DNA of 64,000 nt, taken from NCBI GenBank assembly GCA_008273105.1, contig GCA_008273105.1_4080.1; one strand, written 5' to 3'. Shown in pieces: positions 729-44,864 of this stretch; position 1 is the stretch's first letter; the number at the start of each line of letters is the position of its first letter. Both the position numbers and the translations under genes were made by a program. The notes below the pieces were generated by a model. It did no database searches. It was given only the letters and a program-made list of their open reading frames with translations, and had not been told where the DNA came from. The DNA is from a phage.

Positions 729-787
729 TGTGTTATAACCCTTTACAATTAATATAAAGGGATTATATCACAAAAAATCGGTGGGTG

Positions 788-2019: not shown

Positions 2020-2024
2020 TTGTT

Positions 2025-6959: not shown

Positions 6960-6960
6960 T

Positions 6961-7452: not shown

Positions 7453-7461
7453 TTTATAATC

Positions 7462-7821: not shown

Positions 7822-8174
7822 TCTTGAATTCCTAAATTGAATTTGTATTCTTGATTAATACTTGCATTGGGTTTATGCAAAGCAGCATACTCTTTCATTT
7901 CATTTTGTATTGCAATAACTTCTTCAAATGTACACAAGTACTTCTTATCAAATACTAATGATTCTTGGAATAGTTCTGCGGTATCCATTAATGTATAGTC
8001 CGGCATATCTTGGTGTGGATACTGTAATGAACTGTAATCAATGAATGTAAATTTACCCTGAGTGTAATGAATATACTCATTTGCACTGTGCATTAAATCA
8101 CCTTTGTTTAAATTACAAAAGTACTGATAACTGTGCTTGAAAGTATGTACTGATATTAAAAAATCAAATTCCAT
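7818..8174 (-). CDS. family-A small protein
   Basis: ORF 118 aa; motif DTAELFQESLVFD; its N-terminal 79 bp is duplicated at 8625-8703. Confidence 0.55.
   Translation of the reverse strand: MEFDFLISVHTFKHSYQYFCNLNKGDLMHSANEYIHYTQGKFTFIDYSSLQYPHQDMPDYTLMDTAELFQESLVFDKKYLCTFEEVIAIQNEMKEYAALHKPNASINQEYKFNLGIQE
8096..8174. repeat. 79-bp direct repeat, copy 1 (5' end of gene 7818..8174)
   Basis: aatcacctttgtttaaattacaaaagtactgataactgtgctt...ccat, near-identical (2 mismatches) to 8625-8703. Confidence 0.8.
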
Positions 8175-8545
8175 CAGTACTCAACCTCTACATAAATAGA
8201 TTCAGGAAACTTAGTCATATAATCTTCTGGATAGTTCTGCATTACTTTGATCATTTCTGCCTGTGTAGCACGGACGTATTCAATTGGTGCTCCTGGTAAA
8301 TTCCAGACAGTACTTTCCTGAAAGAATTCCTCTTCTGACAGTACTGTCAGATTTACAAAATCATTACGGTAATTTTTTGAATCATCATATGTGAAGATTT
8401 TAAAAGACCCATTTTCATATAGTACAAGAACAAAATGGGAGAATTTTTGTAATGCACCACCAAGGCTTTCCACGACCGCATGATTCAGTGTACAGATGAC
8501 CTCTTTTTTCCTCATACCGAATTGAATTCTAATTTCTTTTTTCAT
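8174..8545 (-). CDS. family-A small protein
   Basis: ORF 123 aa; motif SEEEFFQESTVWN. Confidence 0.55.
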   Translation of the reverse strand: MKKEIRIQFGMRKKEVICTLNHAVVESLGGALQKFSHFVLVLYENGSFKIFTYDDSKNYRNDFVNLTVLSEEEFFQESTVWNLPGAPIEYVRATQAEMIKVMQNYPEDYMTKFPESIYVEVEY

Positions 8546-8703
8546 AAAATCTCCTTCAGATTAGTACTGAATTTGTACAGAATATTAGAACTGTATACAG
8601 CCTCTGTATCTGTATCCATAATCAAATCACCTTTGTTTAAATTACAAAAGTACTGATAACTGTGCTTAAAAGAATGTACTGATATTAAAAAATCAAATTC
8701 CAT
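8542..8703 (-). CDS. chimeric ORF / gene fragment from partial duplication
   Basis: 53-codon frame; first 27 aa duplicate N-terminus of 7818..8174 then diverge; ATGA overlaps at both ends. Confidence 0.3.
   Translation of the reverse strand: MEFDFLISVHSFKHSYQYFCNLNKGDLIMDTDTEAVYSSNILYKFSTNLKEIL
8625..8703. repeat. 79-bp direct repeat, copy 2
   Basis: Near-identical to 8096-8174. Confidence 0.8.
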
Positions 8704-9080
8704 CACTCTTCCCCTAGATTGAAATGATTACAAAAATCATCTTCACCAGTACTGCACCAGATGTCTATACATTCTCTGTGAATACATTTAATTCTACGCT
8801 GTAATTCAATCATCTCTTCTAATGTACAGATGTACTTCTTATCAAATACTAATGCCGCCTGAAACAGTGCAGCATCATCAAGTACTGTATAGTCCAACAT
8901 CTCGGTTGCTTTACCCCTAAACCCAGTACTAAAATCCATCAAATAAAAGTCAGCATTCCAGTACTTTAAAATCTTGTCCCTAGCGTAGTTTAAATCACCC
9001 TTGTATAAGTTAGAGTGCGTAACTAACTCACCAGTGTACATCCATGTCCTTGCACAAAATTCATTATATTTTATTTCCAT
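8703..9080 (-). CDS. family-A small protein
   Basis: Motif DDAALFQAALVFD; start set at MEIKYNEF (9080) because upstream 47 aa of the six-frame ORF look like translated non-coding sequence. Confidence 0.5.
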   Translation of the reverse strand: MEIKYNEFCARTWMYTGELVTHSNLYKGDLNYARDKILKYWNADFYLMDFSTGFRGKATEMLDYTVLDDAALFQAALVFDKKYICTLEEMIELQRRIKCIHRECIDIWCSTGEDDFCNHFNLGEE

Positions 9081-9276
9081 CTTAATCTCTACTATAATTA
9101 ATAAGGTAAACTCCAATATAAGGAGAACGTTCGGCGGCGGGGTATTTTTTGTTTCAAGAAACATGAACTGTACTCTGAAAAACACAATATAAAACTTTAT
9201 ATTAAACATATACCTTAGCATGTTTTTCAGCGGAAATTTTTTTGACCCCCCTGCGGCCTGTCAAAATGAAACGTCT

Positions 9277-9501
9277 CTATTTATTCAGCCTAGAAACCTT
9301 GATTTCTTCAATCCTTTTCATTGCACAAAGCCTTCGACTCGTCCTCTCGTATATATTCAATACTCGCTGTAATGCATTATCTGTATTATCTGCAACTGCA
9401 ATCTGAACCAAATATGTATCCTTCAAAATAGAATCCATCATGAATTCAAAACCTTTCACACTAAAGCAATATGCCACTTCCGGCTCTTCAAACGTAATCA
9501 T
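9277..9501 (-). CDS. hypothetical protein
   Basis: ORF 74 aa, co-oriented. Confidence 0.45.
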   Translation of the reverse strand: MITFEEPEVAYCFSVKGFEFMMDSILKDTYLVQIAVADNTDNALQRVLNIYERTSRRLCAMKRIEEIKVSRLNK

Positions 9502-9691
9502 AATTCCAATCCCCTATTCCCTCTAACCTTCTAAGATATCTTGCGTAAATTATTTCGAAATATCTGTGCAACGAAATTACGGATTGCTCATAATCATCAT
9601 TCCTGTACATTGTGCATGTCAGAAAATCATTTAACCCAAAATCTAAACTGCACTTGAACTTCTCCTTAGCAACATCTCTAAAATTATTCAT
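9488..9691 (-). CDS. hypothetical protein
   Basis: ORF 67 aa, overlaps neighbour stop. Confidence 0.45.
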   Translation of the reverse strand: MNNFRDVAKEKFKCSLDFGLNDFLTCTMYRNDDYEQSVISLHRYFEIIYARYLRRLEGIGDWNYDYV

Positions 9692-9845
9692 AATATGTCC
9701 TCTGTACAGCGTAGGTGTACTGTGAACTCAGCACCACTAATAGGTAATCTATATTGTAAGCACGATTTCCTCGTTGACTAGCACGGCTGGAATAAAGAAT
9801 ATTATCCACATATGTATTGAACTGATCTTCAAATAACTCTTTCAT
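9684..9845 (-). CDS. hypothetical small protein (53 aa, below ORF-track cutoff)
   Basis: Manual translation MKELFEDQFNTYVDN...; stop overlaps next ATG (ATGAATAA). Confidence 0.35.
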   Translation of the reverse strand: MKELFEDQFNTYVDNILYSSRASQRGNRAYNIDYLLVVLSSQYTYAVQRTYYE

Positions 9846-9873
9846 CAGCATTATACCATCACATAATCATACA

Positions 9874-10425
9874 TCATACATTAACAACTTTATCGATGTA
9901 ATCTTCTAACATATCAATATATCTGGTATTGGTTCTAACTAAAAGGTATGCAAATCCAGAGAACTCCTGTGTATAATGCTTTACAGCGTACATACAACGA
10001 AGCTTATCATTGTCATACATTGTACTGTACTGAAACAAACTCTCGTCTGATAGCTCTAATAACGCTTGGGCTTCACTTCTCGTGAACTTCATAGGGTCAT
10101 GTACTGCATCACAAAAACAAACCTGTGTCTCGCTATTGAAACCCTGTGATAGATATATACCTTCACACTCTGAACGCACCGATACTGCATTATAACTATG
10201 TGTTGCCCCCATCATATCTGAACTCAAAACTAAAATCAACCCATTTTTATTTTTAATCAACAAATCTGACTTAAGGGATTTGATCTCCGTATGGGAAATA
10301 TCACCAAATCTTCCTGGGACTTCAAACTTATCAACGTTGTATACAATCTTTTGTACTTGCTCTTTTAAACGCTTAATTGCACTTCTGTCTTTTTCTAATG
10401 TATCTAATAAACTCATTGAACTCAT
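9874..10425 (-). CDS. family-A small protein
   Basis: Motif SDESLFQYSTMYD; start set at MSSMSLL preceded by AAGGAAAG. Confidence 0.5.
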   Translation of the reverse strand: MSSMSLLDTLEKDRSAIKRLKEQVQKIVYNVDKFEVPGRFGDISHTEIKSLKSDLLIKNKNGLILVLSSDMMGATHSYNAVSVRSECEGIYLSQGFNSETQVCFCDAVHDPMKFTRSEAQALLELSDESLFQYSTMYDNDKLRCMYAVKHYTQEFSGFAYLLVRTNTRYIDMLEDYIDKVVNV

Positions 10426-10435
10426 TGTACTTTCC

Positions 10436-10780
10436 TTACATATTTGTACCGAACAAAACGGAACTTTGAATGCCATTAATCGACACTTCATGTACATATA
10501 TATTTTGTCTGAACAAAGGAACTAATTGAACTAAACTCGTTTGCATAATAATATGCATATGTACATTGTCATATGCCGTTTCGTATTGGAATCGTGCAGC
10601 TTCATCTTCTATGAAATTCGGAACTTGGACTGGATTCTCAAAATTTGTCCTTGTACTGAACTGTACATCATTGTCCTGTACCTTAATACCATATGAATTA
10701 TCATTGTTATCAACTACATCAAATTCAATTAAACTACCATCTTTACTGACGTTTACTATATAAACCGAAAATCGACTCAT
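10436..10780 (-). CDS. family-A small protein (divergent)
   Basis: ORF 114 aa; motif EDEAARFQYETAYD. Confidence 0.5.
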   Translation of the reverse strand: MSRFSVYIVNVSKDGSLIEFDVVDNNDNSYGIKVQDNDVQFSTRTNFENPVQVPNFIEDEAARFQYETAYDNVHMHIIMQTSLVQLVPLFRQNIYVHEVSINGIQSSVLFGTNM

Positions 10781-11295
10781 AAACCTATTTCCTCTAAATC
10801 TTTGACAAATGTATCATAATCCGATAATGACAAAAATATGTCTGTACTGATGTTTTGACGTAATGTATTAAACAAATTATGTACCTGTAATAAATCAGGT
10901 GCATAAATCAGGGATTGCTGGAAATACGATTCTTCTGTATCTAATATATCCCTGCACTCAATTTCACGAACTCGTTGGTATATTGAATTTAATAATACAT
11001 TTTCATCTTTGAGCATTGGAAGGTATCTGATGTACATGTGCTCCATCAACTCATCCTGGATTGAACCCCTGAACTGCAACACGTATTCAAAACACATCAC
11101 TACATCTTGTAGGTAATTGGCACTGTAATTATTGCTGTAAACAATCTTATGACTTCTGAACTCATCATCATCATTTCTGAACCAATTGTCACCCACTTTG
11201 GTGTACTTATGACTAAGCTTCCCATCCTCCAACGCTCGAATGAACTTCATAATGTTAATTGCAAAATCATATGAATGATGCTTGTGTTGATGCAT
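10777..11295 (-). CDS. family-A small protein
   Basis: ORF 172 aa; motif DTEESYFQQSLIY. Confidence 0.55.
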   Translation of the reverse strand: MHQHKHHSYDFAINIMKFIRALEDGKLSHKYTKVGDNWFRNDDDEFRSHKIVYSNNYSANYLQDVVMCFEYVLQFRGSIQDELMEHMYIRYLPMLKDENVLLNSIYQRVREIECRDILDTEESYFQQSLIYAPDLLQVHNLFNTLRQNISTDIFLSLSDYDTFVKDLEEIGL

Positions 11296-11303
11296 TTTTT
11301 ACC

Positions 11304-11498
11304 TCAATTCTGTCCGAAAAAATAACCAAAATGTTTAAAGCAAGAAAGCATTACTATGTTCATCACTCTATCATCAAATTCATCTTGTGTTTCTGCACAT
11401 AATGTTTCACAGATATTCAAATGTAATAATTCAAGCTGGAAACTGTCGGTGAACCAATCAAACTTACGGTATTTTTGTTTAACATCAACTGTAAGCAT
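11304..11498 (-). CDS. hypothetical protein
   Basis: ORF 64 aa. Confidence 0.4.
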   Translation of the reverse strand: MLTVDVKQKYRKFDWFTDSFQLELLHLNICETLCAETQDEFDDRVMNIVMLSCFKHFGYFFGQN

Positions 11499-11499
11499 A

Positions 11500-12123
11500 C
11501 TATATATCCAACCCTTTTACAACATCTACGAAATGTTCAAACACTTCTTTTGAAAAATAACCACCTTCACAAAAAAGCATACTAAACGGTGGCAGCATGT
11601 CCGATAACTCTTTAGCTAAATTGATTTCTGCTCTTAACTCTTGAACATCAATGATATCATGTACTAAAGATAATTGAAACATGAATGCATCTACATCTTC
11701 ATTCATTTCTGAATTGTAATATAACTCTTCAGGGAATTTGTCGGTTTCGTAATAATAAAAAACTTTATTGTTGAACACACCACTAATAGGAACATCATTT
11801 TCATCTTTCTTTGAAATGTTTGTTTCCCATGACTCTATATTATTAGGAACAAAAAAATCATAGGCTGATTTTGAACCCTGTACTGAATCCAACTTTATTC
11901 CATAATATTCCGTATCCATGTATTTCTGCTGTAATGTAATACCACGTGTACTGACATTCACTTGGAATATATCATCTTTATCTGGAACACTAAATGGAAT
12001 ACATAACACTGAATTCTCAGGGTATTTGGCAATGAATGCATCCAGCACTTTATTAAGCACCGGAATGGCAATTTTACTGTACTGCATCAAATCATACATT
12101 TTAATTCTGGTCATATCATTCAC
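11500..12123 (-). CDS. family-A protein
   Basis: ORF 207 aa; motif EDVDAFMFQLSLVHD. Confidence 0.55.
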   Translation of the reverse strand: MNDMTRIKMYDLMQYSKIAIPVLNKVLDAFIAKYPENSVLCIPFSVPDKDDIFQVNVSTRGITLQQKYMDTEYYGIKLDSVQGSKSAYDFFVPNNIESWETNISKKDENDVPISGVFNNKVFYYYETDKFPEELYYNSEMNEDVDAFMFQLSLVHDIIDVQELRAEINLAKELSDMLPPFSMLFCEGGYFSKEVFEHFVDVVKGLDI

Positions 12124-12655
12124 CTGTGTATGTTTTCACCCTTAGCGATTCAAAATCCCATACATCACTGATTGTACCATTGTGCCTGTAATCATAATAT
12201 TCTACTAATACATTATACAATAACTTCAACGATACAAATTCATGATTCCACGGAGCTTTATTCTCATGAACACATTTGGTGATATAAGGTATAATATATA
12301 AACTAAACAACACTAATGGTGAATGTATACATTGCATTTGAAAATATTCTTCTTCTTGCATACAATGCTCAGGAATAATCAATTCCGTATGTGACCCTAA
12401 GCTATACGAACCTGCTGTGTATTTTTTCGTATCACATGCGTACCATATTGTACTATCCGAAATAAATGGAATGATACCATTATTGTTTGCAATGTACATC
12501 ATATGGTAAGAGCGATTTGTCTTGTTAAATATCTCGATACTTTCGATATTACTACAAATCATGTATTCAAGGCAATCAATGATCTTATCTTTAAATGTAC
12601 CAATTTCATTGAATGACATTGCTTTCTGTACTTTTGATACTGTTGTACTGCTCAT
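12116..12655 (-). CDS. family-A protein (divergent)
   Basis: ORF 179 aa; motif QEEEYFQMQCIH. Confidence 0.5.
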   Translation of the reverse strand: MSSTTVSKVQKAMSFNEIGTFKDKIIDCLEYMICSNIESIEIFNKTNRSYHMMYIANNNGIIPFISDSTIWYACDTKKYTAGSYSLGSHTELIIPEHCMQEEEYFQMQCIHSPLVLFSLYIIPYITKCVHENKAPWNHEFVSLKLLYNVLVEYYDYRHNGTISDVWDFESLRVKTYTGE

Positions 12656-13326
12656 ATGTTATCCTTAAAAAAATCCAAATACTCTTCATTGAAAGCATAT
12701 GTATCATCTTTTTTGTTATGCACCACATAATCATAAAGAGCTATGAATGCAGGGATTATGATCTTACATGATTTATTATTGTATTTGTGGTACTCCAAAT
12801 CAACGGTGTTCAATTTAGCAATAAGCATAGCAACAAAGATATCTTCATGGCGATGTACTGTACTGTACTGAAAATACTCATCCTCTCCAATATCTGGATG
12901 ATATAACGGTATAACCAAATTATTACGAATTGACATCTTATATTTTTGTAATGCAGCTAAATGTATGAACCACAATCTATCTTCATTGAAATATGGAAAA
13001 ATAATTTTGTCTGTGCTAATAAAAATTTCTTCATTTCGATTATTTGTCACAAGAGGTGCATACATTTTAATTTTTGCAGATCTAATAATTAAATTAAAAA
13101 TATAATGAATCTTATGAACTGCACTTGATGCATCTTCGTATGTACTTGGGATTATGAAACTCACTATATGTTCTCCTTTAAAATGATTACACATGATAAC
13201 AGCTTTGCACTTCTTTGTCAATACCAAAACGAAAAAAGCCCATATCTTACGATACAGGCGTGCTGGGCATGTTGATTTGAATTTCATTGTACAAATCATC
13301 AATATATAGACATGAAAAAAACACAC
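12652..13326 (-). CDS. family-A protein
   Basis: ORF 224 aa; motif GEDEYFQYSTVH; start probably internal (overlap with upstream gene). Confidence 0.5.
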   Translation of the reverse strand: MCFFHVYILMICTMKFKSTCPARLYRKIWAFFVLVLTKKCKAVIMCNHFKGEHIVSFIIPSTYEDASSAVHKIHYIFNLIIRSAKIKMYAPLVTNNRNEEIFISTDKIIFPYFNEDRLWFIHLAALQKYKMSIRNNLVIPLYHPDIGEDEYFQYSTVHRHEDIFVAMLIAKLNTVDLEYHKYNNKSCKIIIPAFIALYDYVVHNKKDDTYAFNEEYLDFFKDNI

Positions 13327-13753
13327 TATCTTGTACTATATTGTTGTGATAAAGCATTTTAAATACTACATAAAAAAATAAATCAATATCATCGTGGACT
13401 AAATTCTGCTGGAACCACCACTCGTCTGTTAAATCTTGTGCATTAAAATCATCAGGAACTTCAATGAACGACATATCACAATCTTCTTTGTACTCAAACC
13501 ACATGTCGTCATTCGGATAACGTTCATGCTTCTCTGGGTAACAATTGCTGGGATTAAATGTTAAAATATTAAACCCCGTAGAGCAACGTTCTTTATTTAA
13601 AAATGTATTATTCCATACCTGATATTTTTCACCAACATCAAGCTCTTCTGTTACTGATTTTATTGCACATAATGTACTGTATATTGTTTCTATCTTGTGA
13701 ACATATTTAAATGCAGCATCTAAGCTGAACTCTAAATCATACATGTACTGCAT
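13247..13753 (-). CDS. family-A protein
   Basis: ORF 168 aa; motif TDEWWFQQNLVHD. Confidence 0.55.
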   Translation of the reverse strand: MQYMYDLEFSLDAAFKYVHKIETIYSTLCAIKSVTEELDVGEKYQVWNNTFLNKERCSTGFNILTFNPSNCYPEKHERYPNDDMWFEYKEDCDMSFIEVPDDFNAQDLTDEWWFQQNLVHDDIDLFFYVVFKMLYHNNIVQDSVFFSCLYIDDLYNEIQINMPSTPVS

Positions 13754-14073
13754 AAAATTACCTCAACTAAAGCAAGGACTGTATTGAATTCCACTATACT
13801 TGTAATTCCTTGAAGGTACATGTACTTTGCTACTACATATTTCTGTACTAAATTATAATTTTTAAATTCCTCAAAATTGTAATTTAGAACAAAATCTGTA
13901 CTCAAAAATAACTTATGCATCTCTAATGCACTTTGATAATACGCGTACAACTCACTGATATCAATACTGGTTAAATTATATTGTTCATATCTATGATACG
14001 GGATGGCTTCAATTTCAATACTATAAAACCATTCTCTTAACTTATTAATATCAAATGTATTATTCAGCTTCAT
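13732..14073 (-). CDS. hypothetical protein
   Basis: ORF 113 aa. Confidence 0.45.
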   Translation of the reverse strand: MKLNNTFDINKLREWFYSIEIEAIPYHRYEQYNLTSIDISELYAYYQSALEMHKLFLSTDFVLNYNFEEFKNYNLVQKYVVAKYMYLQGITSIVEFNTVLALVEVILCSTCMI

Positions 14074-14626
14074 AACTCAATACCTCCATTAAACACTCAT
14101 ACACACCATCAATCGCATAAGCACAAAAATTGAAATTAATTTTGTGATTCTTGTGTAATGGACTATTGTGTACTGTACTCATTATGACATTATAAAATAA
14201 CAAACGCACTGGTACAAGCATTGAACCTTGGAAAAATTCTTCCTCTGATTTATATGTATTGTACTCTATTGTTTTGTTCGTTTCTTTATCATATGTTACC
14301 ATTACTAATGGGGCATTTTTATTATACCATGCGTACTCTAAATCATTCTTTCCAATAACAGCACCAGGTGCGAAATCCAAAAGACCAATAACACTACGGG
14401 AATTTGGGGTATCAGGTGTATTGAATCGTTTATCAAAATGACTCGTGCACGCAATATATGTATTGTACTTCGATGGAATAATACCAATACATTTGTGGAA
14501 ATGACGCTTGTGATATTTCTGGGCATTATATAAGGCTGCAACAATACAAGCTAACTTTTGTCCCATAAGGATTGCATTAGCGTAGGTGTACTGAATTTCA
14601 TTGCTGGTACGGTACTTCGAGGTCAT
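14060..14626 (-). CDS. family-A protein
   Basis: ORF 188 aa; motif SEEEFFQGSMLV. Confidence 0.55.
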   Translation of the reverse strand: MTSKYRTSNEIQYTYANAILMGQKLACIVAALYNAQKYHKRHFHKCIGIIPSKYNTYIACTSHFDKRFNTPDTPNSRSVIGLLDFAPGAVIGKNDLEYAWYNKNAPLVMVTYDKETNKTIEYNTYKSEEEFFQGSMLVPVRLLFYNVIMSTVHNSPLHKNHKINFNFCAYAIDGVYECLMEVLSYEAE

Positions 14627-14909
14627 AATATTTCCTTTGCCATATCATGGGCTTAAAATCAATAACAGCTTTCTGTATCTTTTTTAATAATAAGACATCA
14701 TAACCACCCGTGTCAATCACTAATTGCTGTTGGAACAATTCTTCATCGGATAATGTATTGAAATCTACAAAATAATCTGTAACTATCGAATCATTTAAAT
14801 GTGCCATGTACCAACCTGAACTTCTTGAATAAATCAAATTCCACCCATCGTCATCATCTTCTAATTCAACATAAATCATATCTGGGGTATACATCATTTT
14901 ATACTTCAT
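14598..14909 (-). CDS. family-A small protein
   Basis: ORF 103 aa; motif SDEELFQQQLVID. Confidence 0.55.
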   Translation of the reverse strand: MKYKMMYTPDMIYVELEDDDDGWNLIYSRSSGWYMAHLNDSIVTDYFVDFNTLSDEELFQQQLVIDTGGYDVLLLKKIQKAVIDFKPMIWQRKYYDLEVPYQQ

Positions 14910-15447
14910 AACTATATCCTTGCATTAATAAATCATAAACTACATGGACTAAATTTAATTGAATATAAAATTTTAAACCTTTAATTAATGGATTCAAATG
15001 CATTGTACTGAATAACATTAGATACATCATCTCATGCGGTTTTGTGATTAATGATTGTTGGAATACGCCAGCTTCATCATAAGGGTCTATGAACTGAAAT
15101 TTGTCTTCATCATAATTTGTATTGGAATGCTGATATATAAAATAATCATCATTGGTATTGTACCACAAATACCCTTCGAATCCTGTACTAACACCTTTGG
15201 TCAATGGGGATGCTGATACTGGATTTGAACTGATTAATGCACCTACATCAACAATCCCCGTTGTATCATATTCGATTTCAACATCAATATCAATGTATTT
15301 CCTTGCGATATCTGCGTTTATGGACAAATATAAACTACCACCTGTCCTCTGACTCAGGATTCCATCTATATGCGATATAGGATGGTTGTTATTGAGGATA
15401 AGCATTATTGTACTTATCTTGTGTGCTAATAACTCTATCTCATTCAT
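14899..15447 (-). CDS. family-A protein
   Basis: ORF 182 aa; motif DEAGVFQQSLIT. Confidence 0.5.
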   Translation of the reverse strand: MNEIELLAHKISTIMLILNNNHPISHIDGILSQRTGGSLYLSINADIARKYIDIDVEIEYDTTGIVDVGALISSNPVSASPLTKGVSTGFEGYLWYNTNDDYFIYQHSNTNYDEDKFQFIDPYDEAGVFQQSLITKPHEMMYLMLFSTMHLNPLIKGLKFYIQLNLVHVVYDLLMQGYSYEV

Positions 15448-15647
15448 AATTTACCTATCGATGGATACCTAGGATTTGTAGGATGTAAAATCCTGTCCTG
15501 TACTGAAAGGTGCTCAAATGTAATTAAACTCAAATAATAATCGTAATTATCAATACCACCCTTCAAATGTATATTGTAATACATCTTAATACTATCTAAT
15601 AATGAATCCTGTAATGCATTTAATGTTATCGTATTAATCTTTTGCAT
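15444..15647 (-). CDS. hypothetical protein
   Basis: ORF 67 aa. Confidence 0.45.
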   Translation of the reverse strand: MQKINTITLNALQDSLLDSIKMYYNIHLKGGIDNYDYYLSLITFEHLSVQDRILHPTNPRYPSIGKL

Positions 15648-15810
15648 TAATGTTCTTCTCTTAAAAATCGTTTGATAGCATAATCTAAATAAAATTCATA
15701 ACACATGCTATCTCTGTTCTTTATCCATATTTTGTAATCGGATTTTATATTACGCAACAAATAATTTGTATTAATTGTGTAATAATCTAATCGCCCTAAT
15801 CTTTCCATTT
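15646..15810 (-). CDS. hypothetical small protein (54 aa, below ORF-track cutoff)
   Basis: Manual translation MERLGRLDYYTINTNYLLRN...; TAATG overlap with downstream gene start. Confidence 0.4.
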
Positions 15811-16185
15811 AATAGGATACTCCTTTCCTTGTACTATGTACGACAAAATCCATCCGTAATGAATAGGATGATTTTTGTCTGAATCAGGAATAAAATATAA
15901 AGCTGTACTTGGATTGTGACTGAATAAATCTTTATTGTCAAATGTAAAATGATCTAATTTTATTATACGCGTTGATAAAGAACGTAATACATTTTTAACA
16001 CTGAACTCTGTTCCTTTGTATTTTTCCGATAATTCAAATAATGCATCTGTAATTAAATCACTGAACTCTTGAATTACAAAATTCTGATAAAATGCATTAA
16101 TCTCTTTAAACTCTGTATACATTTCACTTCTTGTATTCAAAAGGAATATTACTTGTTTAAGATCCTGTACTATTGTTGGGTTCAT
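15796..16185 (-). CDS. hypothetical protein
   Basis: ORF 129 aa. Confidence 0.5.
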   Translation of the reverse strand: MNPTIVQDLKQVIFLLNTRSEMYTEFKEINAFYQNFVIQEFSDLITDALFELSEKYKGTEFSVKNVLRSLSTRIIKLDHFTFDNKDLFSHNPSTALYFIPDSDKNHPIHYGWILSYIVQGKEYPIKWKD

Positions 16186-16423
16186 ATTTGTTTATCTCAT
16201 TATGTACCTTAAGCATCAAAATTTGCATATGAATTTTTTGTTCAAGGTGCTTGATAAATTTCTGTGCCATTTCTTCTTGTTCCGATGTACCAAGATAAAA
16301 TAACAGATTAAATTCTGATAATCGCAAAGAAAAATCTTCATCACCACCCTTTAAACAAAAATCCCTGTACTTCGATGCGTACAAATATTGGTTTACTTTT
16401 TTATAATACCCTGTGTTTTGCAT
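16157..16423 (-). CDS. family-B small protein
   Basis: ORF 88 aa; motif YLGTSEQEEMA. Confidence 0.55.
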   Translation of the reverse strand: MQNTGYYKKVNQYLYASKYRDFCLKGGDEDFSLRLSEFNLLFYLGTSEQEEMAQKFIKHLEQKIHMQILMLKVHNEINKYEPNNSTGS

Positions 16424-16608
16424 ACGATCTCCGTTCGCAATGAACTTATATAATAATGAATGTATTGTTCCTGTGAACGTGTTCCAAGAAAAATAAACAT
16501 ATCAAACTCTGTTCTTTTTAAATTCAATTCATCTTTTGTTAAACTAGTACTGAATTCCCTGTACTTTTGGGTCTTCCATTCTTGATTAATTGTCTTGTAC
16601 ATTGACAT
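16393..16608 (-). CDS. family-B small protein
   Basis: ORF 71 aa; motif FLGTRSQEQYI. Confidence 0.55.
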   Translation of the reverse strand: MSMYKTINQEWKTQKYREFSTSLTKDELNLKRTEFDMFIFLGTRSQEQYIHYYISSLRTEIVCKTQGIIKK

Positions 16609-16912
16609 ATATGGTTCTTCCTTGTGTGCCTTGTATTAGCCTATCAAACACATCGAGCATCACTTTTTGAATATTAATTAGTACTGGCATCGTGCAAATA
16701 TCAATGTCGTATACTAAGCTGTACTGGAATAATTCATCTTCCTGCATTTGTACTAAATTAGGTAAAGGATAATTGTCTGCCTCTTCATCCTGGTACTTGA
16801 AATGCATAACACCATCCTTTTTGTACAAAAGAATGTCAATATCACCTAACTCTTCTGCATAACCAAAAATACATATACTCGATGTTTTTGCTATATTAAA
16901 TTTCATCTCCAC
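16586..16912 (-). CDS. family-A small protein
   Basis: ORF 108 aa; motif QEDELFQYSLVYD. Confidence 0.55.
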   Translation of the reverse strand: MEMKFNIAKTSSICIFGYAEELGDIDILLYKKDGVMHFKYQDEEADNYPLPNLVQMQEDELFQYSLVYDIDICTMPVLINIQKVMLDVFDRLIQGTQGRTIYVNVQDN

Positions 16913-17148
16913 CTCTCTCCGTCAGCACAAGAGTACTGGTACGTTGTCGTTAGGGTAGGGACCATGTTTGTAATGGGCATGTTGTTAACAATAACCGTAA
17001 CAGGCATAAGAATCGTCTCTTCTCTACTCTGTCCTGTCCTTGTGCAATTCATCTTCTGCATTTCATCTGAATCCATGAAATACAATACAAATGGTGCAAT
17101 CCCAAGAACAATACACAAAACGATAAGGAAATTTAAAAAATTTAACAT
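16903..17148 (-). CDS. hypothetical small membrane protein
   Basis: ORF 81 aa with hydrophobic N-terminus (LNFLNFLIVLCIVLGIAPFVLYF); sigma70-like promoter directly upstream. Confidence 0.45.
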   Translation of the reverse strand: MLNFLNFLIVLCIVLGIAPFVLYFMDSDEMQKMNCTRTGQSREETILMPVTVIVNNMPITNMVPTLTTTYQYSCADGERWR

Positions 17149-17177
17149 AATTTTTACCCTATGATTAACGTTAGTGT

Positions 17178-17206
17178 ACTATATCAGTAATGAAAAGTAC
17201 TGTCAA
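17178..17206 (-). promoter_or_regulatory. sigma70-type promoter (TTGACA-N17-TATAGT)
   Basis: Minus-strand TTGACA gtacttttcattactga TATAGT upstream of 16903..17148. Confidence 0.45.
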
Positions 17207-17207
17207 G

Positions 17208-17612
17208 CTAGTATTGCACTGTTCTAATGAAAGTACCTGAACTCATGGATTTAAGCTTATGAACCTCTTCCTGCATACCCTTGATTAACCCTAAAGGTAT
17301 AGGTACATCATGTACTAAGCTGTACTGAAAGTATTCTTCTTCAGATAAAGTACTAACATCTGGAACGCCAATTTTAGTTATATAATCTTGATGTGTTGAC
17401 CAATAAATTATATCTTCAGTAGAATTGTACTCCCCATATACTGAACAGTATTGATGAATATCTTTCCTGTACCCTTGAGCAATAAAGAACTTATCTACTG
17501 CATTACCAGCATTAATAGAATTCACTTCGATTGTCACAGTACTTGAGCTTGTATAACTCTTAGTATTATCAGTACTTTTAATACTCAACTGTGTGTTCTT
17601 CATAATCACCAT
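17208..17612 (-). CDS. family-A small protein
   Basis: ORF 134 aa; motif SEEEYFQYSLVHD. Confidence 0.55.
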   Translation of the reverse strand: MVIMKNTQLSIKSTDNTKSYTSSSTVTIEVNSINAGNAVDKFFIAQGYRKDIHQYCSVYGEYNSTEDIIYWSTHQDYITKIGVPDVSTLSEEEYFQYSLVHDVPIPLGLIKGMQEEVHKLKSMSSGTFIRTVQY

Positions 17613-17922
17613 TAGGCTCCTGTTTAGATTCTTTCATTAGTACTATCATCTTATGTACTAATGGCATAGGAAACTCTAAATCCCATACTAATGATTCCTG
17701 AAAGTATTCCTCTGGTGATAAAGTACTTAAATCTTTAATATCAACGTGCTTGTATATTTTATTTTCGTAATTAACAAATGATATATATAAATCACTAACA
17801 TAAGAATCATAGGTAATTGTGAATGGCTTACCCTTGTAATCCATTACATCTCTACATAGACTACTTTTGATATATGTATGTTCAAATGATTTATATACCT
17901 TGAGTTGTATATTAGTTTTCAT
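17578..17922 (-). CDS. family-A small protein
   Basis: ORF 114 aa; motif SPEEYFQESLVWD. Confidence 0.55.
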   Translation of the reverse strand: MKTNIQLKVYKSFEHTYIKSSLCRDVMDYKGKPFTITYDSYVSDLYISFVNYENKIYKHVDIKDLSTLSPEEYFQESLVWDLEFPMPLVHKMIVLMKESKQEPNGDYEEHTVEY

Positions 17923-18187
17923 ATTTCTCTTTATTAGCTTGTTTGGTTTTATAGTGAATTAAATCTATTAATGTAATCAAGTACAACGTCAAATAGTACT
18001 CTTGTTGATCTGTACCTAATGATACAAAGAACTTGTGCTCATAGATTAAAACCTGTTTCTCTTCAAATGGACATTTAATCCTCTGTATAGGCTTAAGTAA
18101 ATGATAGTACTTATTAAATCTATGATACATTTCTAGTTCTGTCAGTACTTTCATATTAAACACATACTCCATTAGCTGTAGCATCAC
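17912..18187 (-). CDS. family-B small protein
   Basis: ORF 91 aa; motif VSLGTDQQEYY. Confidence 0.55.
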   Translation of the reverse strand: MMLQLMEYVFNMKVLTELEMYHRFNKYYHLLKPIQRIKCPFEEKQVLIYEHKFFVSLGTDQQEYYLTLYLITLIDLIHYKTKQANKEKYEN

Positions 18188-18377
18188 GTAAAGCTGTCAA
18201 ATACTTCTGTACGGCTTGCTCTTGCTTATTTGTACCTAAAAGTATATACATCCATAATTCACTGTAATGTACATCTTGTGTATAAGGGTCATTGTAACTT
18301 TTTGATAATATAGCATCAAATTCAGATGCATGAACCCTTGTGAACTTAAGAATATCTTGTTGTGTTATGATTCTCAT
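18156..18377 (-). CDS. family-B small protein
   Basis: ORF 73 aa; motif LLGTNKQEQAV. Confidence 0.55.
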   Translation of the reverse strand: MRIITQQDILKFTRVHASEFDAILSKSYNDPYTQDVHYSELWMYILLGTNKQEQAVQKYLTALRDATANGVCV

Positions 18378-18589
18378 ATCTTTTCCTGTACTATCTGTAT
18401 AAGAATCCCTATGTGTGAATTAACAGTTCTCTCTTGGTGCTGTGTTCCTAAGAGTGTCAGTACTATCATATCTGAACGCAAAAGATTTTTTTCAAGTTCA
18501 CTTATATCAGTTCTTGAATCAAGTGCCATATATTTGTGATTATTCTTCCTGAATAGTGCCAAGTACTCTTGGTTTGATATTATCTTCAT
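18374..18589 (-). CDS. family-B small protein
   Basis: ORF 71 aa; motif LLGTQHQERTV. Confidence 0.55.
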   Translation of the reverse strand: MKIISNQEYLALFRKNNHKYMALDSRTDISELEKNLLRSDMIVLTLLGTQHQERTVNSHIGILIQIVQEKI

Positions 18590-18801
18590 AGTTTACTTTT
18601 AATTTCCATTAAAAGTGCTCTAATATGCTCATTGACAAATCGCTCTTGGGAATCTGTGTCTAGGGTGAGAAGCATTCTTAAATCGGAACCTCTGATGGTA
18701 TATTCTAAATCATTCTTTGATTCTCGCATAAGTTTCTGAAAGGATGAGAAGTGTAATCCCATGAGTTCAATGTATTCTGCTGTTCCTAGTGGTTTTGGCA
18801 T
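18586..18801 (-). CDS. family-B small protein
   Basis: ORF 71 aa; motif LTLDTDSQERFV. Confidence 0.55.
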   Translation of the reverse strand: MPKPLGTAEYIELMGLHFSSFQKLMRESKNDLEYTIRGSDLRMLLTLDTDSQERFVNEHIRALLMEIKSKL

Positions 18802-19019
18802 TTTAGTTCAATAGCTCGTTTAAGTGTATTAATATAATCTTTAATGTCGTGTTCTTGATAGTTCGTTCCAAGGGTAGCTAGAACATAGACTTCATTTCTC
18901 TTAATAATTTTATCCATATCTGGTATATCTGATGTGTTAATGACGAAGAGCTTCAAAAACAGTCCATTTATGATTGTTAGGTATTCTACATCGGTAATGA
19001 TTTTCATTTGCATTTGCAT
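18786..19019 (-). CDS. family-B small protein
   Basis: ORF 77 aa; motif ATLGTNYQEHDI. Confidence 0.55.
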   Translation of the reverse strand: MQMQMKIITDVEYLTIINGLFLKLFVINTSDIPDMDKIIKRNEVYVLATLGTNYQEHDIKDYINTLKRAIELKCQNH

Positions 19020-19225
19020 TTTCTCAGTACTGATTCTTTAAGTTCATTGATGTAGCACTCTACATATTCTTCTTGTAGGTTTGTTCCGATATGTAACAGT
19101 ACTCTTAAATCTGCTCTCAGTACTTCTTTGTCATCTTCATCTATATCAGACAGTGTTATGTTTAAGAATTTACTTGAACTCTCTATAAGTAATATTACTG
19201 AATCACCTTTGCTTAAAATTTTCAT
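19004..19225 (-). CDS. family-B small protein
   Basis: ORF 73 aa; motif HIGTNLQEEYV. Confidence 0.55.
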   Translation of the reverse strand: MKILSKGDSVILLIESSSKFLNITLSDIDEDDKEVLRADLRVLLHIGTNLQEEYVECYINELKESVLRKCKCK

Positions 19226-19433
19226 AATCTCTTTTTGCTTTCCTCGCCAAAAGGTACATATACGATTCTTCGTATTGTGCTTGGTAGTTTGTGTTTAAGA
19301 GTCGAAACAACTTCTGTTCTGCTAGAACGAGTTGCTTATCTTCATAACAACGATAGCGTATCAACTTTTTGTATTCGATGTTGATTACATCCATTACTAT
19401 AAGCCCATGTTCATCATCTGTCAAGTGTTTCAT
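19203..19433 (-). CDS. family-B small protein
   Basis: ORF 76 aa; motif LLNTNYQAQYE. Confidence 0.55.
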   Translation of the reverse strand: MKHLTDDEHGLIVMDVINIEYKKLIRYRCYEDKQLVLAEQKLFRLLNTNYQAQYEESYMYLLARKAKRDYENFKQR

Positions 19434-19672
19434 GCATTTTTTCTTTTTCTTATATGTTTAGTTAAAAGGTATATTAGTTTTCTATTGTATTCTTCCTGAT
19501 AGTTTGTTCCTAATAGTGCAAGAAGTTTTGCTTCAACTAAAGCTAATTGACGTTCTTCAAATGTGTGTTCCAGTATGTACTTTGGGTTTGATTTTTTAGC
19601 GTAATCACTATTAGTTTTCATTACAATCTTATGATATTCATTAACTGTTAGGATTTTTAAATACTTGATCAT
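19430..19672 (-). CDS. family-B small protein
   Basis: ORF 80 aa; motif LLGTNYQEEYN. Confidence 0.55.
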   Translation of the reverse strand: MIKYLKILTVNEYHKIVMKTNSDYAKKSNPKYILEHTFEERQLALVEAKLLALLGTNYQEEYNRKLIYLLTKHIRKRKNA

Positions 19673-19892
19673 GTATCTTTTCCTTTATAGAGAATTTAAG
19701 ATATCGAAGCATACTTTCAATGTAATACTCTTGTCTGTCAGTGCCAAGAAAGTACATGAGTTGAATGTATAAAACTTCTGCACTCCTTTCCGCTGGAGAC
19801 TTGTTTGTGTCGTTTGGAAGTTGATTTGTATGTTTTCTTGATTTAATTAGTCGTTCTTTTAACTCATCGTCTGTTAAGTATTTCATTTGCAT
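19641..19892 (-). CDS. family-B small protein
   Basis: ORF 83 aa; motif FLGTDRQEYYI. Confidence 0.55.
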   Translation of the reverse strand: MQMKYLTDDELKERLIKSRKHTNQLPNDTNKSPAERSAEVLYIQLMYFLGTDRQEYYIESMLRYLKFSIKEKIHDQVFKNPNS

Positions 19893-20118
19893 TTACTTTT
19901 TCCTTAATAGTGATTTTAAGATATCTAATCATACGTGCAACATATTCCTCTTGTCTATCAGTTCCCAGAAGATATGGTAGTGATTGGAATAATACTTCTG
20001 CACTCCTTTCTGCTGGGGTTTGGTTTAGGTCAATTGGACGTTTATTGGTATATCTCTTGGCACGAACTAATCTCTCGACGTATTCATTATAGGTTAAGTA
20101 TATCATTTCATTTTGCAT
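19864..20118 (-). CDS. family-B small protein
   Basis: ORF 84 aa; motif LLGTDRQEEYV. Confidence 0.55.
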   Translation of the reverse strand: MQNEMIYLTYNEYVERLVRAKRYTNKRPIDLNQTPAERSAEVLFQSLPYLLGTDRQEEYVARMIRYLKITIKEKVNANEILNRR

Positions 20119-20338
20119 TAACTTTTTCCTTAATACTCATTATAAGATGTTCAATCATATTTTGAACCATAAATTCTTGTTTATCAGTTCCAAGAACGTA
20201 TGGTAGCTTCTGAAACAATACATTTGCAGATACTTCAGATATTGATTGATTTGGAACGAACTTAAGAGTAATGTTTTTGGTTTTTAACATCTTCTCTTGA
20301 AATTCTTCATTCGTTAAGTATATCATTTCATTTTGCAT
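20108..20338 (-). CDS. family-B small protein
   Basis: ORF 76 aa; motif VLGTDKQEFMV. Confidence 0.55.
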   Translation of the reverse strand: MQNEMIYLTNEEFQEKMLKTKNITLKFVPNQSISEVSANVLFQKLPYVLGTDKQEFMVQNMIEHLIMSIKEKVNAK

Positions 20339-20554
20339 TTACATTCTCTCATATATATTTTGGGTTAAAAGGTCAATCCAGATTTCCACATATCGTTGTT
20401 GGTGTTGCGTCCCTAACAGTACACCCAACTTAGCTTCACACTCTAATAACAATCTGGTTTTGTATGGTAGACTTTGGAATCCTATAGTAGCATCTAATTT
20501 GGTAATTGCATAGTTGATTCGGATGAATCTTTCTTGCAATGTGATGTTGATCAT
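20339..20554 (-). CDS. family-B small protein
   Basis: ORF 71 aa; motif LLGTQHQQRYV. Confidence 0.55.
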   Translation of the reverse strand: MINITLQERFIRINYAITKLDATIGFQSLPYKTRLLLECEAKLGVLLGTQHQQRYVEIWIDLLTQNIYERM

Positions 20555-20841
20555 TTCTTAGTACACCTCAGTGGTTGGGTCATTTGATGAAAGTACAGCT
20601 TACCTCTGATTTCCAGTAGTAACTCCGCGATTAAGCGATTTACTTCTGTATCTTGATAGTTTGTTCCTAAGAATACACCCATCTTTAACTCACGCATCAT
20701 AATCATTTTCTTACTGTGTTGAATTTCTGGGTTGTGATAGATTGTATTACGTTTGTGCGTAATTTTTGTCATACGCTCGGTATATTCATCTTTACTTAAA
20801 TTGATCATTTGCATGTTCATCAACCTCACATTTATTTTCAA
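20551..20841 (-). CDS. family-B small protein
   Basis: ORF 96 aa; motif FLGTNYQDTEV. Confidence 0.55.
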   Translation of the reverse strand: MKINVRLMNMQMINLSKDEYTERMTKITHKRNTIYHNPEIQHSKKMIMMRELKMGVFLGTNYQDTEVNRLIAELLLEIRGKLYFHQMTQPLRCTKK

Positions 20842-42724: not shown

Positions 42725-42752
42725 ATTATACGCTTTTATCAGTACGGTGCAA
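42725..42752 (-). promoter_or_regulatory. sigma70-type early promoter (TTGCAC-N16-TATAAT)
   Basis: Minus strand TTGCAC ... TATAAT gttttacatcgag, then hairpin gcgggaagtgttcccgc. Confidence 0.55.
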
Positions 42753-42784
42753 GTACTTTCTACAAATACTTTTAAAATAGTTTT

Positions 42785-42876
42785 CTTTCTATATAGGAGT
42801 ACTATTATTCAGTACTGAATCAATCCAGGGGAACTATCTTTCTATATAGGAGTACTATTATTCAGTACTGAATCAA
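42785..42876. repeat. 39-bp direct repeat x2 (14-bp spacer)
   Basis: ctttctatataggagtactattattcagtactgaatcaa at 42785-42823 and 42838-42876; contains palindrome ttcagtactgaa. Confidence 0.8.
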
Positions 42877-43028
42877 CCAAATCACTACTACACCCCATAA
42901 AACGGCCTCAGACGCATTCTAACGCATTAATACACATAAGCTATACATTTGCACCATTCCAATCATTCCAGGGCTTTACAGGCCGTTTAAACGCGTTAAA
43001 TTATTTTCAATTATTTTGTTTTTAGGTA

Positions 43029-43056
43029 TTGACTTGATCCTGAAAAAGCGTATAAT
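43029..43056 (+). promoter_or_regulatory. plus-strand sigma70-type promoter (TTGACT-N16-TATAAT)
   Basis: Initial transcribed sequence tactacatagacg matches the 38.7 kb copy; CCCAGAGGGTGCG at 43084-43097. Confidence 0.45.
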
Positions 43057-43495
43057 TACTACATAGACGCGAGAAAGCGGAAACCCCAGAGGGTGCGGAA
43101 TTACGCCCAAAATTCAAGATATAAAAAAAGGATACACTCCCGCACCCTAGCAGGTAAACGCACTTTCTCAGTACTGAAATATAGTACCATAGTCCGGCCC
43201 AGGATAGCAAGCAAATTAATTAAAACTTTTTTGCTTCCAGGGTATTGCTTTATTTTTTCAGTACTGTATAATAGTTCCATCAAGTCGAGAAAGACTCAAG
43301 CCCACCGGGTGCATAGTTACGCCCAAAATTCAGTACTGAAAAAAATTTTAAAAATATCCGTCCAGGCCGTTGACATTGCCCCCAGTTTATAAGATAATGA
43401 TTCCAGATTCAGAAAAATCTAACGTTCGATACTGCTGGGGAATTTACCCCGACGCGGTAGGGGAACTATTGGAAAAAACAAAATAAAATTTTGAT

Positions 43496-43600
43496 TTAGC
43501 CGTCTATACTTCCAGACGTGTAACCATCTAGCCGTTTAGCCGTCCAGAAATCTAGCCGTTTAGCCGTCTAGATGGATAGCCATCTTTACTTCCAGACTTC
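43496..43600. repeat. iteron-like cluster (AGCCGT x6, CTTCCAGAC x2, CCATCTAG/CTAGATGG inverted pair)
   Basis: tagccgtttagccgtc repeated; visible by eye in the non-coding hub. Confidence 0.7.
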
Positions 43601-44657
43601 TGGAGGGCTAGACATATCTACGCCCAAAATCCATCCAGGGTAACTACACCCAAAATCCGTCAGTACTATACCATAGATCTATCTTTTGAAAGGGAGTATT
43701 CAGTACTGCCATCATAGCCCTCACTATGTTACCCTAGGAGGATGAAGACCATCATGTAGTACTGAATACTGTTAGAGGGAATCCACCAGCTTGTGCTGGT
43801 GGCATAATGCTTTAGATTAAAATCAGTACTAATACCATTCTGTTAATATCAGTACTGTTATTACGATTTTCATATGAGGTTCAAAAAGATGTACCACCAC
43901 AGGAGGAACTATCTTTTCTGTACTGTACTGTCTCACGACAGGAGGTAGAGTAAATGAATTGTTCGCAGCAACTCATCTCTCTATGTAGAACATTATACAG
44001 TACTGAATCATAATGTCAATAACTTTCTTTCATCTTTCAGTACTGATATTCTTGAGAACTACCCGACTACAATCATCATTATATCCCACAAATCATAAAC
44101 GTCCCAACGTAAATTTCAACTTTCGAAGATCCAACTTTTATTTCATAGGTACTCCAAAATTTTTAGGATCGAGATTTAGGATGGAGTACTAACCAACTTT
44201 TTGCTGGAGCCTCAAGGGGTAATTGAATTTTACCCCGAAGGGTAAAAGGGTAATTGTAATTAAGGTGAAAGTAATAATTCAGTACTAATCATTGCGTGAT
44301 TACTTTTGATTACATTTGATGTAATTTGCAAAATGGAAAAGGAGCTTGGAAACTAAAAAGTACGGCAGACTTCCTCTGCCTACTTAGTGGCATATCAGTA
44401 CTGAATCATTCACACACATTTCCGTGCATTCTTGAGCAATCTTGTCTATACTAATCAGTACTGAATCATATATAATCATTCTGTGATTCTACGGTGCTCA
44501 TATAAATGTTTATATATGATTACTTATGACTACCTATGATTACGGGGTTTAGCCTGGGGAGAATCCTAGTGATCGCATTTGTCCAGGCTGAATTTTAACA
44601 ATTCGCCTGTACATAAAGGTTGTTCACTAGGAGCTTCCCCTGTCTCTATGTGTTTAA

Positions 44658-44849: not shown

Positions 44850-44864
44850 AGTATTCTCTATTAA

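Follow-up and report, generated by a model that had tools for sequence, protein, structure and literature searches.

The longest gene-free stretch in a 64,000-nt window of Asteriusvirus phage DNA, here called the hub (42670-44657), is very probably the border of the direct terminal repeat (DTR) and an early control region. The window is the whole stretch of DNA that was analysed, and all coordinates are positions in it unless another record is named. The hub contains the right DTR boundary and, about 0.8 kb from this repeat end, an array of contiguous 8-bp units that resemble the operator boxes (metboxes) of the host repressor MetJ. Taken as a whole, it is probably best explained as the counterpart, in a Rak2-like jumbo phage, of "Repeat Region 3" of phage T5, where the injection stop signal (iss) is presumed to lie, with MetJ predicted from the sequence to coat the array and to form a barrier in cis at the DTR border.

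The phage is an Asteriusvirus, that is, a PBECO4/121Q-like jumbo coliphage of the Rak2-like group. The window is 95-97% identical to the Asteriusvirus jumbo coliphages CRJP21, JP4 and PBECO4, with 121Q farther off, and an IMG/VR search with a neighbouring protein returned 121Q as the only relative. By open reading frame (ORF) edges the gene-free hub spans 42727-44657, between a minus-strand gene whose right edge is 42726 and an array of minus-strand ORFs of about 60 aa (family C) starting at 44658; no other gap in the window exceeds 469 nt. The left edge is more likely 42670. In the JP4 annotation the last DTR gene has a shorter, 120-aa form starting at 42669 (MATQINK...), and this start is preferred because the ATG at 42726 sits within the -10 box of the gene's own promoter (TTGCAC-16-TATAAT, 42725-42752, minus strand, read from the sequence). 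For the 139-aa reading of this gene in G17 (42307-42726), the start is probably placed too far upstream. Within the hub, six ORFs of 38-99 aa were rejected as coding, with frameshifts or in-frame stops in 121Q, ph0011 or EJP2 (five of them in at least two relatives), as were the 19-aa ORFs at 43890-44014, whose frame or length differs in G17. ARAGORN found no tRNA in the hub, and no Rfam family reached the gathering score there; a looser E-value threshold gave chance-level matches (E of at least 1.7). The hub is non-coding, as the sequence-only reading of this DNA had proposed, and neither a real protein-coding gene nor a tRNA gene was found in it.

The G17 record holds both DTR copies (1..20668 and 350150..370817). 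Its right end, "...ggcagacttcctctgcctact", corresponds to window position 44384 and its left end, "aggttacccgccctttagcc", to 24366, so the window holds one whole repeat unit (24366-44384, 20,019 bp) and the hub consists of the right-hand end of this unit (42670-44384) plus 273 nt of unique DNA. The right boundary (44368-44390, plus strand) reads GACTTC, 11 nt, the cut (44384/44385) and TAGTGG. The left boundary (GCTA/AGG, 24360-24372, plus strand, cut 24365/24366) is outside the hub and defines the repeat. Position 1 of the fEgEco12 record, whose termini were set by PhageTerm and restriction digests, is the same nucleotide as the right boundary site, and in Muenster and Munch (both PhageTerm), CBB, BF and XbC2 the deposited sequence stops at the corresponding site. 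In addition, the PhageTerm repeat length of Sharanji equals that of G17. The window sites coincide with experimentally determined virion ends of relatives (fEgEco12, G17, Muenster, Munch, CBB), and by this homology the hub contains the right DTR boundary and with it a physical end of the virion DNA. This agrees with the earlier proposal of a packaging or regulatory centre: one of the packaged termini of the relatives falls inside the hub, and the separation of the early module from the family-C array that had been noticed there is where the DTR gives way to the unique region.

In the records that show the right junction from both sides, its sequence is ACT/TAGTGG (window), AGATA/TAGTGC (EJP2) or AGATA/TAGTGG (GAP32), while the left junction is GCTA/AG in the window, CBB and Muenster. 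Both ends are therefore flanked on the outside by an inverted YRCTA, an arrangement that would be compatible with nicking of opposite strands and subsequent repeat duplication. Three TGATTAC-like units in 10-bp phase (44297-44326, plus strand, repeat family D8) lie 58-87 nt inside the terminus and a second such triplet (44517-44546), also in 10-bp phase, lies outside it, so that the triplets bracket the terminus and account for four of the ten plus-strand TGATTAC copies in the window. They are a possible recognition element for the terminase or packaging enzyme, which would cut at the terminus motif and the flanking triplets. An intrinsic terminator (GGCAGA..TCTGCC and a T run, 44364-44380, minus strand), found by terminator scan and folding, serves the incoming minus-strand family-C operon and lies 4 nt from the DTR edge.

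What had been read as an iteron-like cluster is, by its sequence, a metbox array (43498-43617). We used the MetJ half-site matrix and thresholds of Augustus and Spicer (2011; PMC3228920), under which an operator consists of at least two contiguous 8-bp metboxes that each reach at least one quarter of the consensus score and together reach at least the consensus score (12.58 bits). By this definition the array is a predicted MetJ operator: it comprises 15 in-phase 8-bp units, 13 of them above threshold, with 80.4 bits in the 11 contiguous boxes at 43498-43585 and 98 bits in phase overall. Re-phased, its units read AGCCGTCT, AGACGTGT, AGCCGTTT and so on, and the consensus of the MetJ operator unit is AGACGTCT. 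The 8-bp periodicity of the cluster, the two copies of CTTCCAGAC and the CCATCTAG/CTAGATGG pair reported before are all present, but AGCCGT occurs five times and not six. The rest of the window has at most two metboxes in a row, and a run of five was found in none of 2000 shuffles. The 350-kb relative ECO103 contains a single array, of 14 boxes, and its next best run is 3. Box number is 11, 12, 14 or 15 among close relatives and varies by whole 8-bp units (12 in G17, 14 in JP4 and ECO103, 15 in fEgEco12).

When the arrays of the window and of the Providencia phage PR1 were compared by BLAST with 5426 E. coli genomes, the sole match was the metF operator, which aligned through the PR1 part. The E. 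coli metF operator scores 28 bits with four boxes above threshold, so that each of its boxes carries roughly as many bits as one in the phage arrays, and the window array is about three times longer. The likeness to Enterobacterales MetJ operators (metF, metBJ, metA and others) thus covers contiguous, spacer-free 8-bp units matching the consensus, with per-unit scores equal to those of metF. The phage array differs in having 13-15 boxes instead of the four of metF, in being viral, in its position away from any methionine-gene promoter and in the frequent C at position 3. Within the Rak2-like group the array occupies the same slot, after the leader of promoter P3 (see below), in CBB, GAP32, XbC2, BF and EJP2, and its distance of 0.7-0.9 kb from the cut site is conserved. 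It also occurs in T5-like phages, including Providencia PR1 and PSTCR5, Aeromonas AhSzq-1 and AhSzw-1, and the Vibrio phages Pontus, Thalassa and VPT02. In the phage database, metbox arrays were found in Rak2-like jumbo phages and Demerecviridae only. A scan of viral contigs with a degenerate metbox pattern was dominated by perfect 8-mer microsatellites, and yielded at least three contigs of T5-like size with true arrays. MetJ is confined to five gammaproteobacterial orders, and the hosts of array-bearing phages all belong to these orders except for the recorded host of XbC2. On this sequence evidence, MetJ probably binds the array.

In T5, Repeat Region 3 (9194-10409) is not translated, abounds to an extreme degree in repeats and shows higher conservation than the ORFs; it extends 270 bp past the repeat, which ends at 10139, and holds the presumed iss, with a shear point at about 9618 (Davison, bioRxiv 10.1101/866236). 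The hub is likewise an untranslated region of more than 1 kb, rich in repeats and palindromes, at the inner DTR end; it is better conserved than the neighbouring ORFs and overruns the repeat end at 44384 by 273 nt. In both cases an array of short sites resembling those of host regulators lies 0.5-0.9 kb from the repeat end, and in T5-like phages infecting Providencia, Vibrio and Aeromonas this slot is taken by the same metbox array. In PR1 (DTR 1..10461) the array is at 9617-9701, and the order is palindrome, DnaA boxes, array and a CTGCGCTT motif like the T5 nick site. The systems also differ. The window phage is a jumbo myovirus with a 20-kb repeat, its hub is without the DnaA-box pairs, the IRC/IRD inverted repeats and evident A1/A2 genes of T5, and the T5-like phages are without the three plus-strand promoters and the covarying leader of the hub. 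Two-step DNA transfer is a feature known from T5.

T5 itself has Fur-like boxes in the corresponding place. In AY587007, direct repeat C and palindromes E-I at 9468-9640 (870-1040 of the fetched locus L008) share 15-16 of 19 positions with the Fur box and coincide with the reported shear point of first-step transfer; no mention of this match was found in the literature searched. Fur-like arrays also follow the homologous P3 leader in the Klebsiella and Salmonella jumbo phages Muenster and Munch. Counting 19-mers that match GATAATGATAATCATTATC at 13 or more positions gave 8 in Muenster, 6 in Munch and 5 in T5. The window hub has 2, against a shuffle mean of 1.06, and a Fur-box array was therefore rejected there as a chance-level match. 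With either metbox or Fur-like arrays present, the slot is in both phage families filled by arrays that resemble operators of host repressors. A wider claim, which we hold with little confidence, is that the T5-type injection stop is an operator array for an abundant host repressor (MetJ or Fur, beside DnaA boxes) and that the same device gates genome entry or early transcription in Rak2-like phages. The host factor behind the T5 stop was described as unsolved in 2020, with the DnaA boxes as a proposal, in a text that names neither Fur nor MetJ (Davison, bioRxiv 10.1101/866236), and our full-text searches found no report linking MetJ or Fur sites to phage terminal repeats.

According to the proposed mechanism, holo-MetJ, carrying S-adenosylmethionine, would coat the array cooperatively and create a protein-DNA block of about 120 bp at the repeat border. 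This block would act in cis as a barrier that halts or paces entry of the remaining genome once the repeat is inside, in two steps like those of T5. RNA polymerase that starts at either of the two strong, convergent promoters beside the array would likewise be stopped by it; these are P3 about 93 nt to the left and the promoter at 44019-43992 about 370 nt to the right. An entry-stop role of the array, considered on its own, is an analogy that we put forward tentatively. The left end of T7 may be a further analogue through its transcription-driven DNA entry: it has a 160-bp repeat, the tandem strong host promoters A1-A3 and short-repeat arrays beside the terminal repeat. It is similarly a non-coding end region with tandem sigma-70 promoters and short-period arrays near a terminal repeat, but all its promoters point into the genome, whereas those of the hub converge on the array, and there is no sequence similarity.

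Several observations weigh against this explanation. The array does not overlap the promoter of a methionine or S-adenosylmethionine gene and has no met gene nearby; it begins about 93 nt downstream of the start site predicted for P3, unlike chromosomal met operators, which lie over a promoter. Box position 3 is C in 46% of units, compared with 10% in the MetJ matrix. XbC2 (OP292654) has a full array, at 2790-2930 of the fetched locus L136 and within an enterobacterial-type hub, yet its recorded host is Xanthomonas, and Xanthomonadales are without MetJ (PMC3228920), which calls one of the two into question, the recorded host or the interpretation as MetJ sites. On the T5 side, no DnaA box (TTWTNCACA, both strands, 42770-44650) was found in the hub, although such boxes, paired within the IRD'/IRC' inverted repeats, are the core of the iss as Davison describes it, and no such pairs occur in the hub. 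The Fur assignment for T5, Muenster and Munch was made by consensus matching only. The DTR ORFs are all small, with no evident large gene like T5 A1/A2 and no obvious Pfam counterpart, although the A1/A2 models were not specifically searched. To our knowledge, the T5 iss has never been mapped to base level.

The same boxes could also serve as a sponge. Because they are of operator grade, form an array three times the length of the metF operator and sit in the part of the genome that is present twice, they might titrate the host repressor in trans, at first from the repeat copies and later from hundreds of genomes, as Fur or DnaA boxes might elsewhere. The phage would then benefit from methionine and S-adenosylmethionine synthesis being switched on, from iron uptake or from a block to host replication initiation. 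Different phages do carry arrays for different global regulators, which is consistent with this. A sponge, however, has no need of the fixed slot and distance from the repeat end seen in two unrelated families, and among the matches listed the arrays occur only in long-DTR phages. We consider titration unlikely as the function of the array.

A protein encoded by the phage, of ribbon-helix-helix or small terminase type, might instead bind the array and mark the repeat end for packaging, end processing or genome positioning. Centromere arrays have a 7-8-bp period, a contiguous 8-bp period is typical of ribbon-helix-helix arrays, and the conserved 0.7-0.9 kb between array and cut site would suit such a role, as would the departure of position 3 from the MetJ matrix and the recorded host of XbC2, which has no MetJ. 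A search of the 49 DTR ORFs, however, revealed neither a MetJ nor a ribbon-helix-helix family, and a tblastn search of the 350-kb relative returned no MetJ, Arc or Mnt homologue, the latter being weak evidence. A phage-encoded MetJ or Arc was rejected on these two results. The same boxes are shared by T5-family siphoviruses and jumbo myoviruses, between which no common DNA-binding protein was identified, the sole E. coli sequence resembling the arrays is a MetJ operator, and sister phages fill the slot with Fur-like boxes. Recognition by a phage protein accordingly receives a low probability, and binding by host MetJ is preferred.

The region immediately upstream of the array is transcriptionally equipped. 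P3 (TTGACA-17-GATAAT, 43370-43398, plus strand, 11/12 matches to consensus) lies upstream of a homologous leader in all relatives examined. The leader (43430-43494, plus strand) consists of a hairpin (43430-43459), a Shine-Dalgarno-like AGGGGA and a mini-ORF of 3-14 codons, which starts with AUU in the window and with AUG in other genera and whose peptide is not conserved. The stem sequence differs in nearly every genus, with five pairs changed on both sides; 93.6% of cells are paired, compared with 78.5% in shuffles (0/500) and 44-65% in slid controls. These features could mean that the array acts as RNA, with P3 transcribing the leader, the mini-ORF and a repetitive UAGCCGU-rich non-coding RNA, for example as a protein sponge, and the related phage PA5oct does express abundant non-coding RNAs from its terminal repeat. 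But the boxes occur in both orientations, e.g. AGCCATCT and AGATGGCT, as a palindromic DNA site predicts, the T5-like phages have the array without the P3 leader, and within the array neither a terminator nor covarying structure was found. A function as RNA is quite improbable for the array, which we continue to read as a DNA operator.

Two further plus-strand promoters precede P3. The P1 module (43029-43147) has TTGACT-16-TATAAT (43029-43056, 11/12), a small hairpin (CGC-GAGAAA-GCG, 43068-43079), a CCCAGAGGGTGCGG box and an inverted copy of the box, CCGCACCC, at 43140-43147, which belongs to a convergent minus-strand module. A "long hairpin" at P1 was rejected as an RNA stem; it is better described as two convergent copies of the leader box, and the stem is not kept in fEgEco12. 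The P2 module (43245-43332) has TTGCTT-16-TATAAT (43245-43272, 9/12) with AGTACTG in the spacer, followed by the hairpin GTC-GAGAAA-GAC, CCCACCGGGTGCA and a TACGCCCAAAATTCA box. These three sigma-70 sites bear out the plus-strand promoters with a CCCACxGGGTGCA motif that had been noticed before, and the motif is found at 43085 and 43301. As CCCANNGGGTG (CCCAxxGGGTG), it occurs 11 times in the window against 0.13 expected, and nine of ten copies in ECO103 are inside the repeat. All ten copies in the window repeat lie about 35 nt after a sigma-70-type promoter, seven of them preceded by a 3-5-bp stem with a GAGAAA-like loop. The stem covaries strongly: 91% of cells are paired, compared with 48.5% in shuffles, and in 19 cells both sides have changed. 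This pattern of promoter, leader hairpin and box makes P1 and P2 members of the early promoter-leader family of the repeat, although in the hub they face no ORF.

Members of this family elsewhere in the repeat are at 25783, 27743, 30688, 32692, 34354 and 41204 (minus strand) and at 38737 and 41146 (plus strand). They combine a sigma-70 promoter with a CCCACNGGGTGC box, in most cases together with the small covarying GAGAAA-loop hairpin. In form, such leaders resemble lambdoid nut/boxB hairpins through their 3-5-bp stem, purine-rich GAGAAA loop and position at most about 20 nt from the predicted start site. They differ in having no boxA but the conserved CCCACNGGGTGC box instead, and no N-like protein was identified. 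The module at about 38690-38810 lies on the plus strand among minus-strand genes and is followed by a terminator (AGGGGATC aatc GATCCCCT), together forming a candidate small RNA of about 85 nt that is conserved in 121Q. At 41100-41260, two facing modules (41146 plus, 41204 minus) in a 425-nt gene-free island would make complementary short RNAs, in the same layout as at P1 in the hub.

To the right of the array, a perfect consensus sigma-70 promoter (TTGACA-16-TATAAT, 12/12, AGTACTG in the spacer, 43992-44019, minus strand) faces the array leftward; downstream of it there is no conserved ORF, and its sequence is identical in G17. The initiation region of the last DTR operon's promoter (42725-42752) is repeated here, at 43977-43998, with 91% identity (repeat family D11). 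The hub has 11 promoter-like sites and shuffles have 10.8, so the case for these promoters rests on their conservation in other genera. The architecture of the hub is kept in CBB, GAP32, XbC2, BF, Muenster and Munch, and a sensitive search against other genera found nucleotide similarity in two hub segments and none in the flanking genes. The shared order is the leftward promoter of the last repeat gene, P1 facing its convergent module, P2 (in Asteriusvirus and Muenster only), P3 with its leader, the array, a YACNCCCAAAATYC box, an AGTACT-rich part with a hairpin, and the terminus. These conserved early promoters and leader elements support the regulatory half of the earlier proposal.

Other repeats are scattered through the hub. 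The direct repeat already reported as two 39-bp copies is recovered by repeat search as two 40-nt copies, 100% identical (42784-42823 and 42837-42876, family D3), which each contain AGTACT and TCAGTACTGA, lie just upstream of the leftward promoter and are both present in fEgEco12. Two copies of a YACNCCCAAAATCC box are at 43613-43661 (plus strand, families D6 and D7), with others at 43096-43116, 43312-43332 and 44144-44164, and in equivalent relative places in CBB, BF and GAP32. The many AGTACT palindromes are indeed present, with 18 copies in the hub (9.6 per kb), but they are not hub-specific because the excess extends over the window (259 against 21.6 expected, about 12-fold) and over the genome of ECO103 (918 copies, with a density of 6-6.7 per kb where the terminal repeat, the hub and the family-C array lie). 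AGTACT is densest at 24-48 kb and missing at 10001-16000 and 20001-24000, and the hubs of CBB, BF, GAP32 and Muenster are likewise rich in it. It may be a regulator, modification or structural site. The full palindrome TCAGTACTGA clusters in the hub, with 7 of 17 window copies. A general promoter role for AGTACT was rejected; only about 25 of the 259 sites lie in sigma-70-like spacers, as AGTACTG-TATAAT.

Both perfect hairpins of the sequence-only reading exist, the second only weakly stable (44216-44236, -5.6 kcal/mol, z -1.8). The first (43783-43802, -9.7 kcal/mol, z -4.8) consists of two Chi sites in inverted orientation (GCTGGTGG; minus strand 43783-43790, plus strand 43795-43802), a pair that is conserved in Asteriusvirus and Munch. 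The depositors of G17 labelled it a terminator (ARNOLD). We rejected it as an intrinsic terminator; it has no T run on either strand, was not in the terminator scan, and its arms are Chi octamers. The window holds 14 Chi sites where 0.57 would be expected. They cluster in the terminal repeat and are at 27233, 28640, 31578, 32528, 33038, 37082, 43783 and 63439 on the minus strand and at 37144, 43795, 49785, 59436, 59691 and 59949 on the plus strand. Within the repeat, seven of nine sites are on the minus strand, and the plus-strand site of the hairpin is 582 bp from the right end. ECO103 has 12 of its 28 genome-wide sites in the 30 kb that hold the repeat and hub, and the G17 repeat has nine minus-strand sites, starting 1.36 kb from the end. 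Composition accounts for part of the strand bias. Given the polarity of RecBCD, minus-strand Chi is active for entry from the left end and the plus-strand Chi of the hairpin for entry from the right end. The inverted pair, 0.6 kb from the right end, would turn RecBCD from nuclease to recombinase at entering ends, and a role of Chi in end protection and RecA-mediated joining of the repeats is plausible.

A replication origin had also been suggested for the hub, with the repeats as iterons and a sign change of GC skew as its mark. The skew analysis does place minima there: the cumulative GC skew of the window is lowest at 44-45 kb, and in ECO103 the detrended skew of the whole genome also reaches its minimum at the hub. 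To the right, the third-position skew of the family-C ORFs runs opposite to their coding strand, and Chi polarity changes at the hub. But skew follows coding-strand blocks across ECO103, with no two-replichore pattern, and was rejected as origin evidence, and Chi polarity is largely explained by strand composition. The local skew anomaly stems from the family-C ORFs (44658-48800, minus strand, tandem), which unlike all other gene groups in the window have a C-rich coding strand, with a third-position GC skew of -0.32; as a result, the sign change of total GC skew comes about 4 kb ahead of the switch in coding strand. The array shares with plasmid and phage iteron origins and pac sites its clustered short direct repeats in non-coding DNA near a packaging cut site. 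It differs in that its units are contiguous, 8 bp long and match metboxes, where iterons are 17-22 bp, and in that the hub has no long AT-rich unwinding region and no DnaA boxes, with no initiator family among the 49 DTR ORFs and the cut about 0.8 kb away. A classical iteron origin is thus unsupported, since DnaA boxes and an initiator gene are both absent, and T5 origins lie near the genome centre (Davison, bioRxiv 10.1101/866236). We regard an origin in the hub as highly improbable. Priming of replication from the repeat ends is possible.

The remainder of the repeat (24366-42700) carries the 49 ORFs on the minus strand, with Pfam matches that include a DksA/TraR zinc finger, a GNAT acetyltransferase, a ParE-like toxin domain and DUF7249, a content that fits an early module for host takeover. 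The left DTR boundary sits in a short non-coding gap (24280-24540), and its ACGCATT-type repeats recur in the hub at 42908-42935.

The architecture described here shows where the genomes of jumbo myoviruses used in phage-therapy studies truly end and delimits their (pre-)early compartment with its promoters; it also shows that about 2 kb to which some records assign spurious "hypothetical proteins" is non-coding. The interchange of metboxes and Fur-like boxes in one variable slot makes the question of the T5 host factor experimentally simple. If the wider claim on host-repressor arrays is true, DNA delivery in two unrelated phage families would be paced by host repressors loaded with S-adenosylmethionine or iron.

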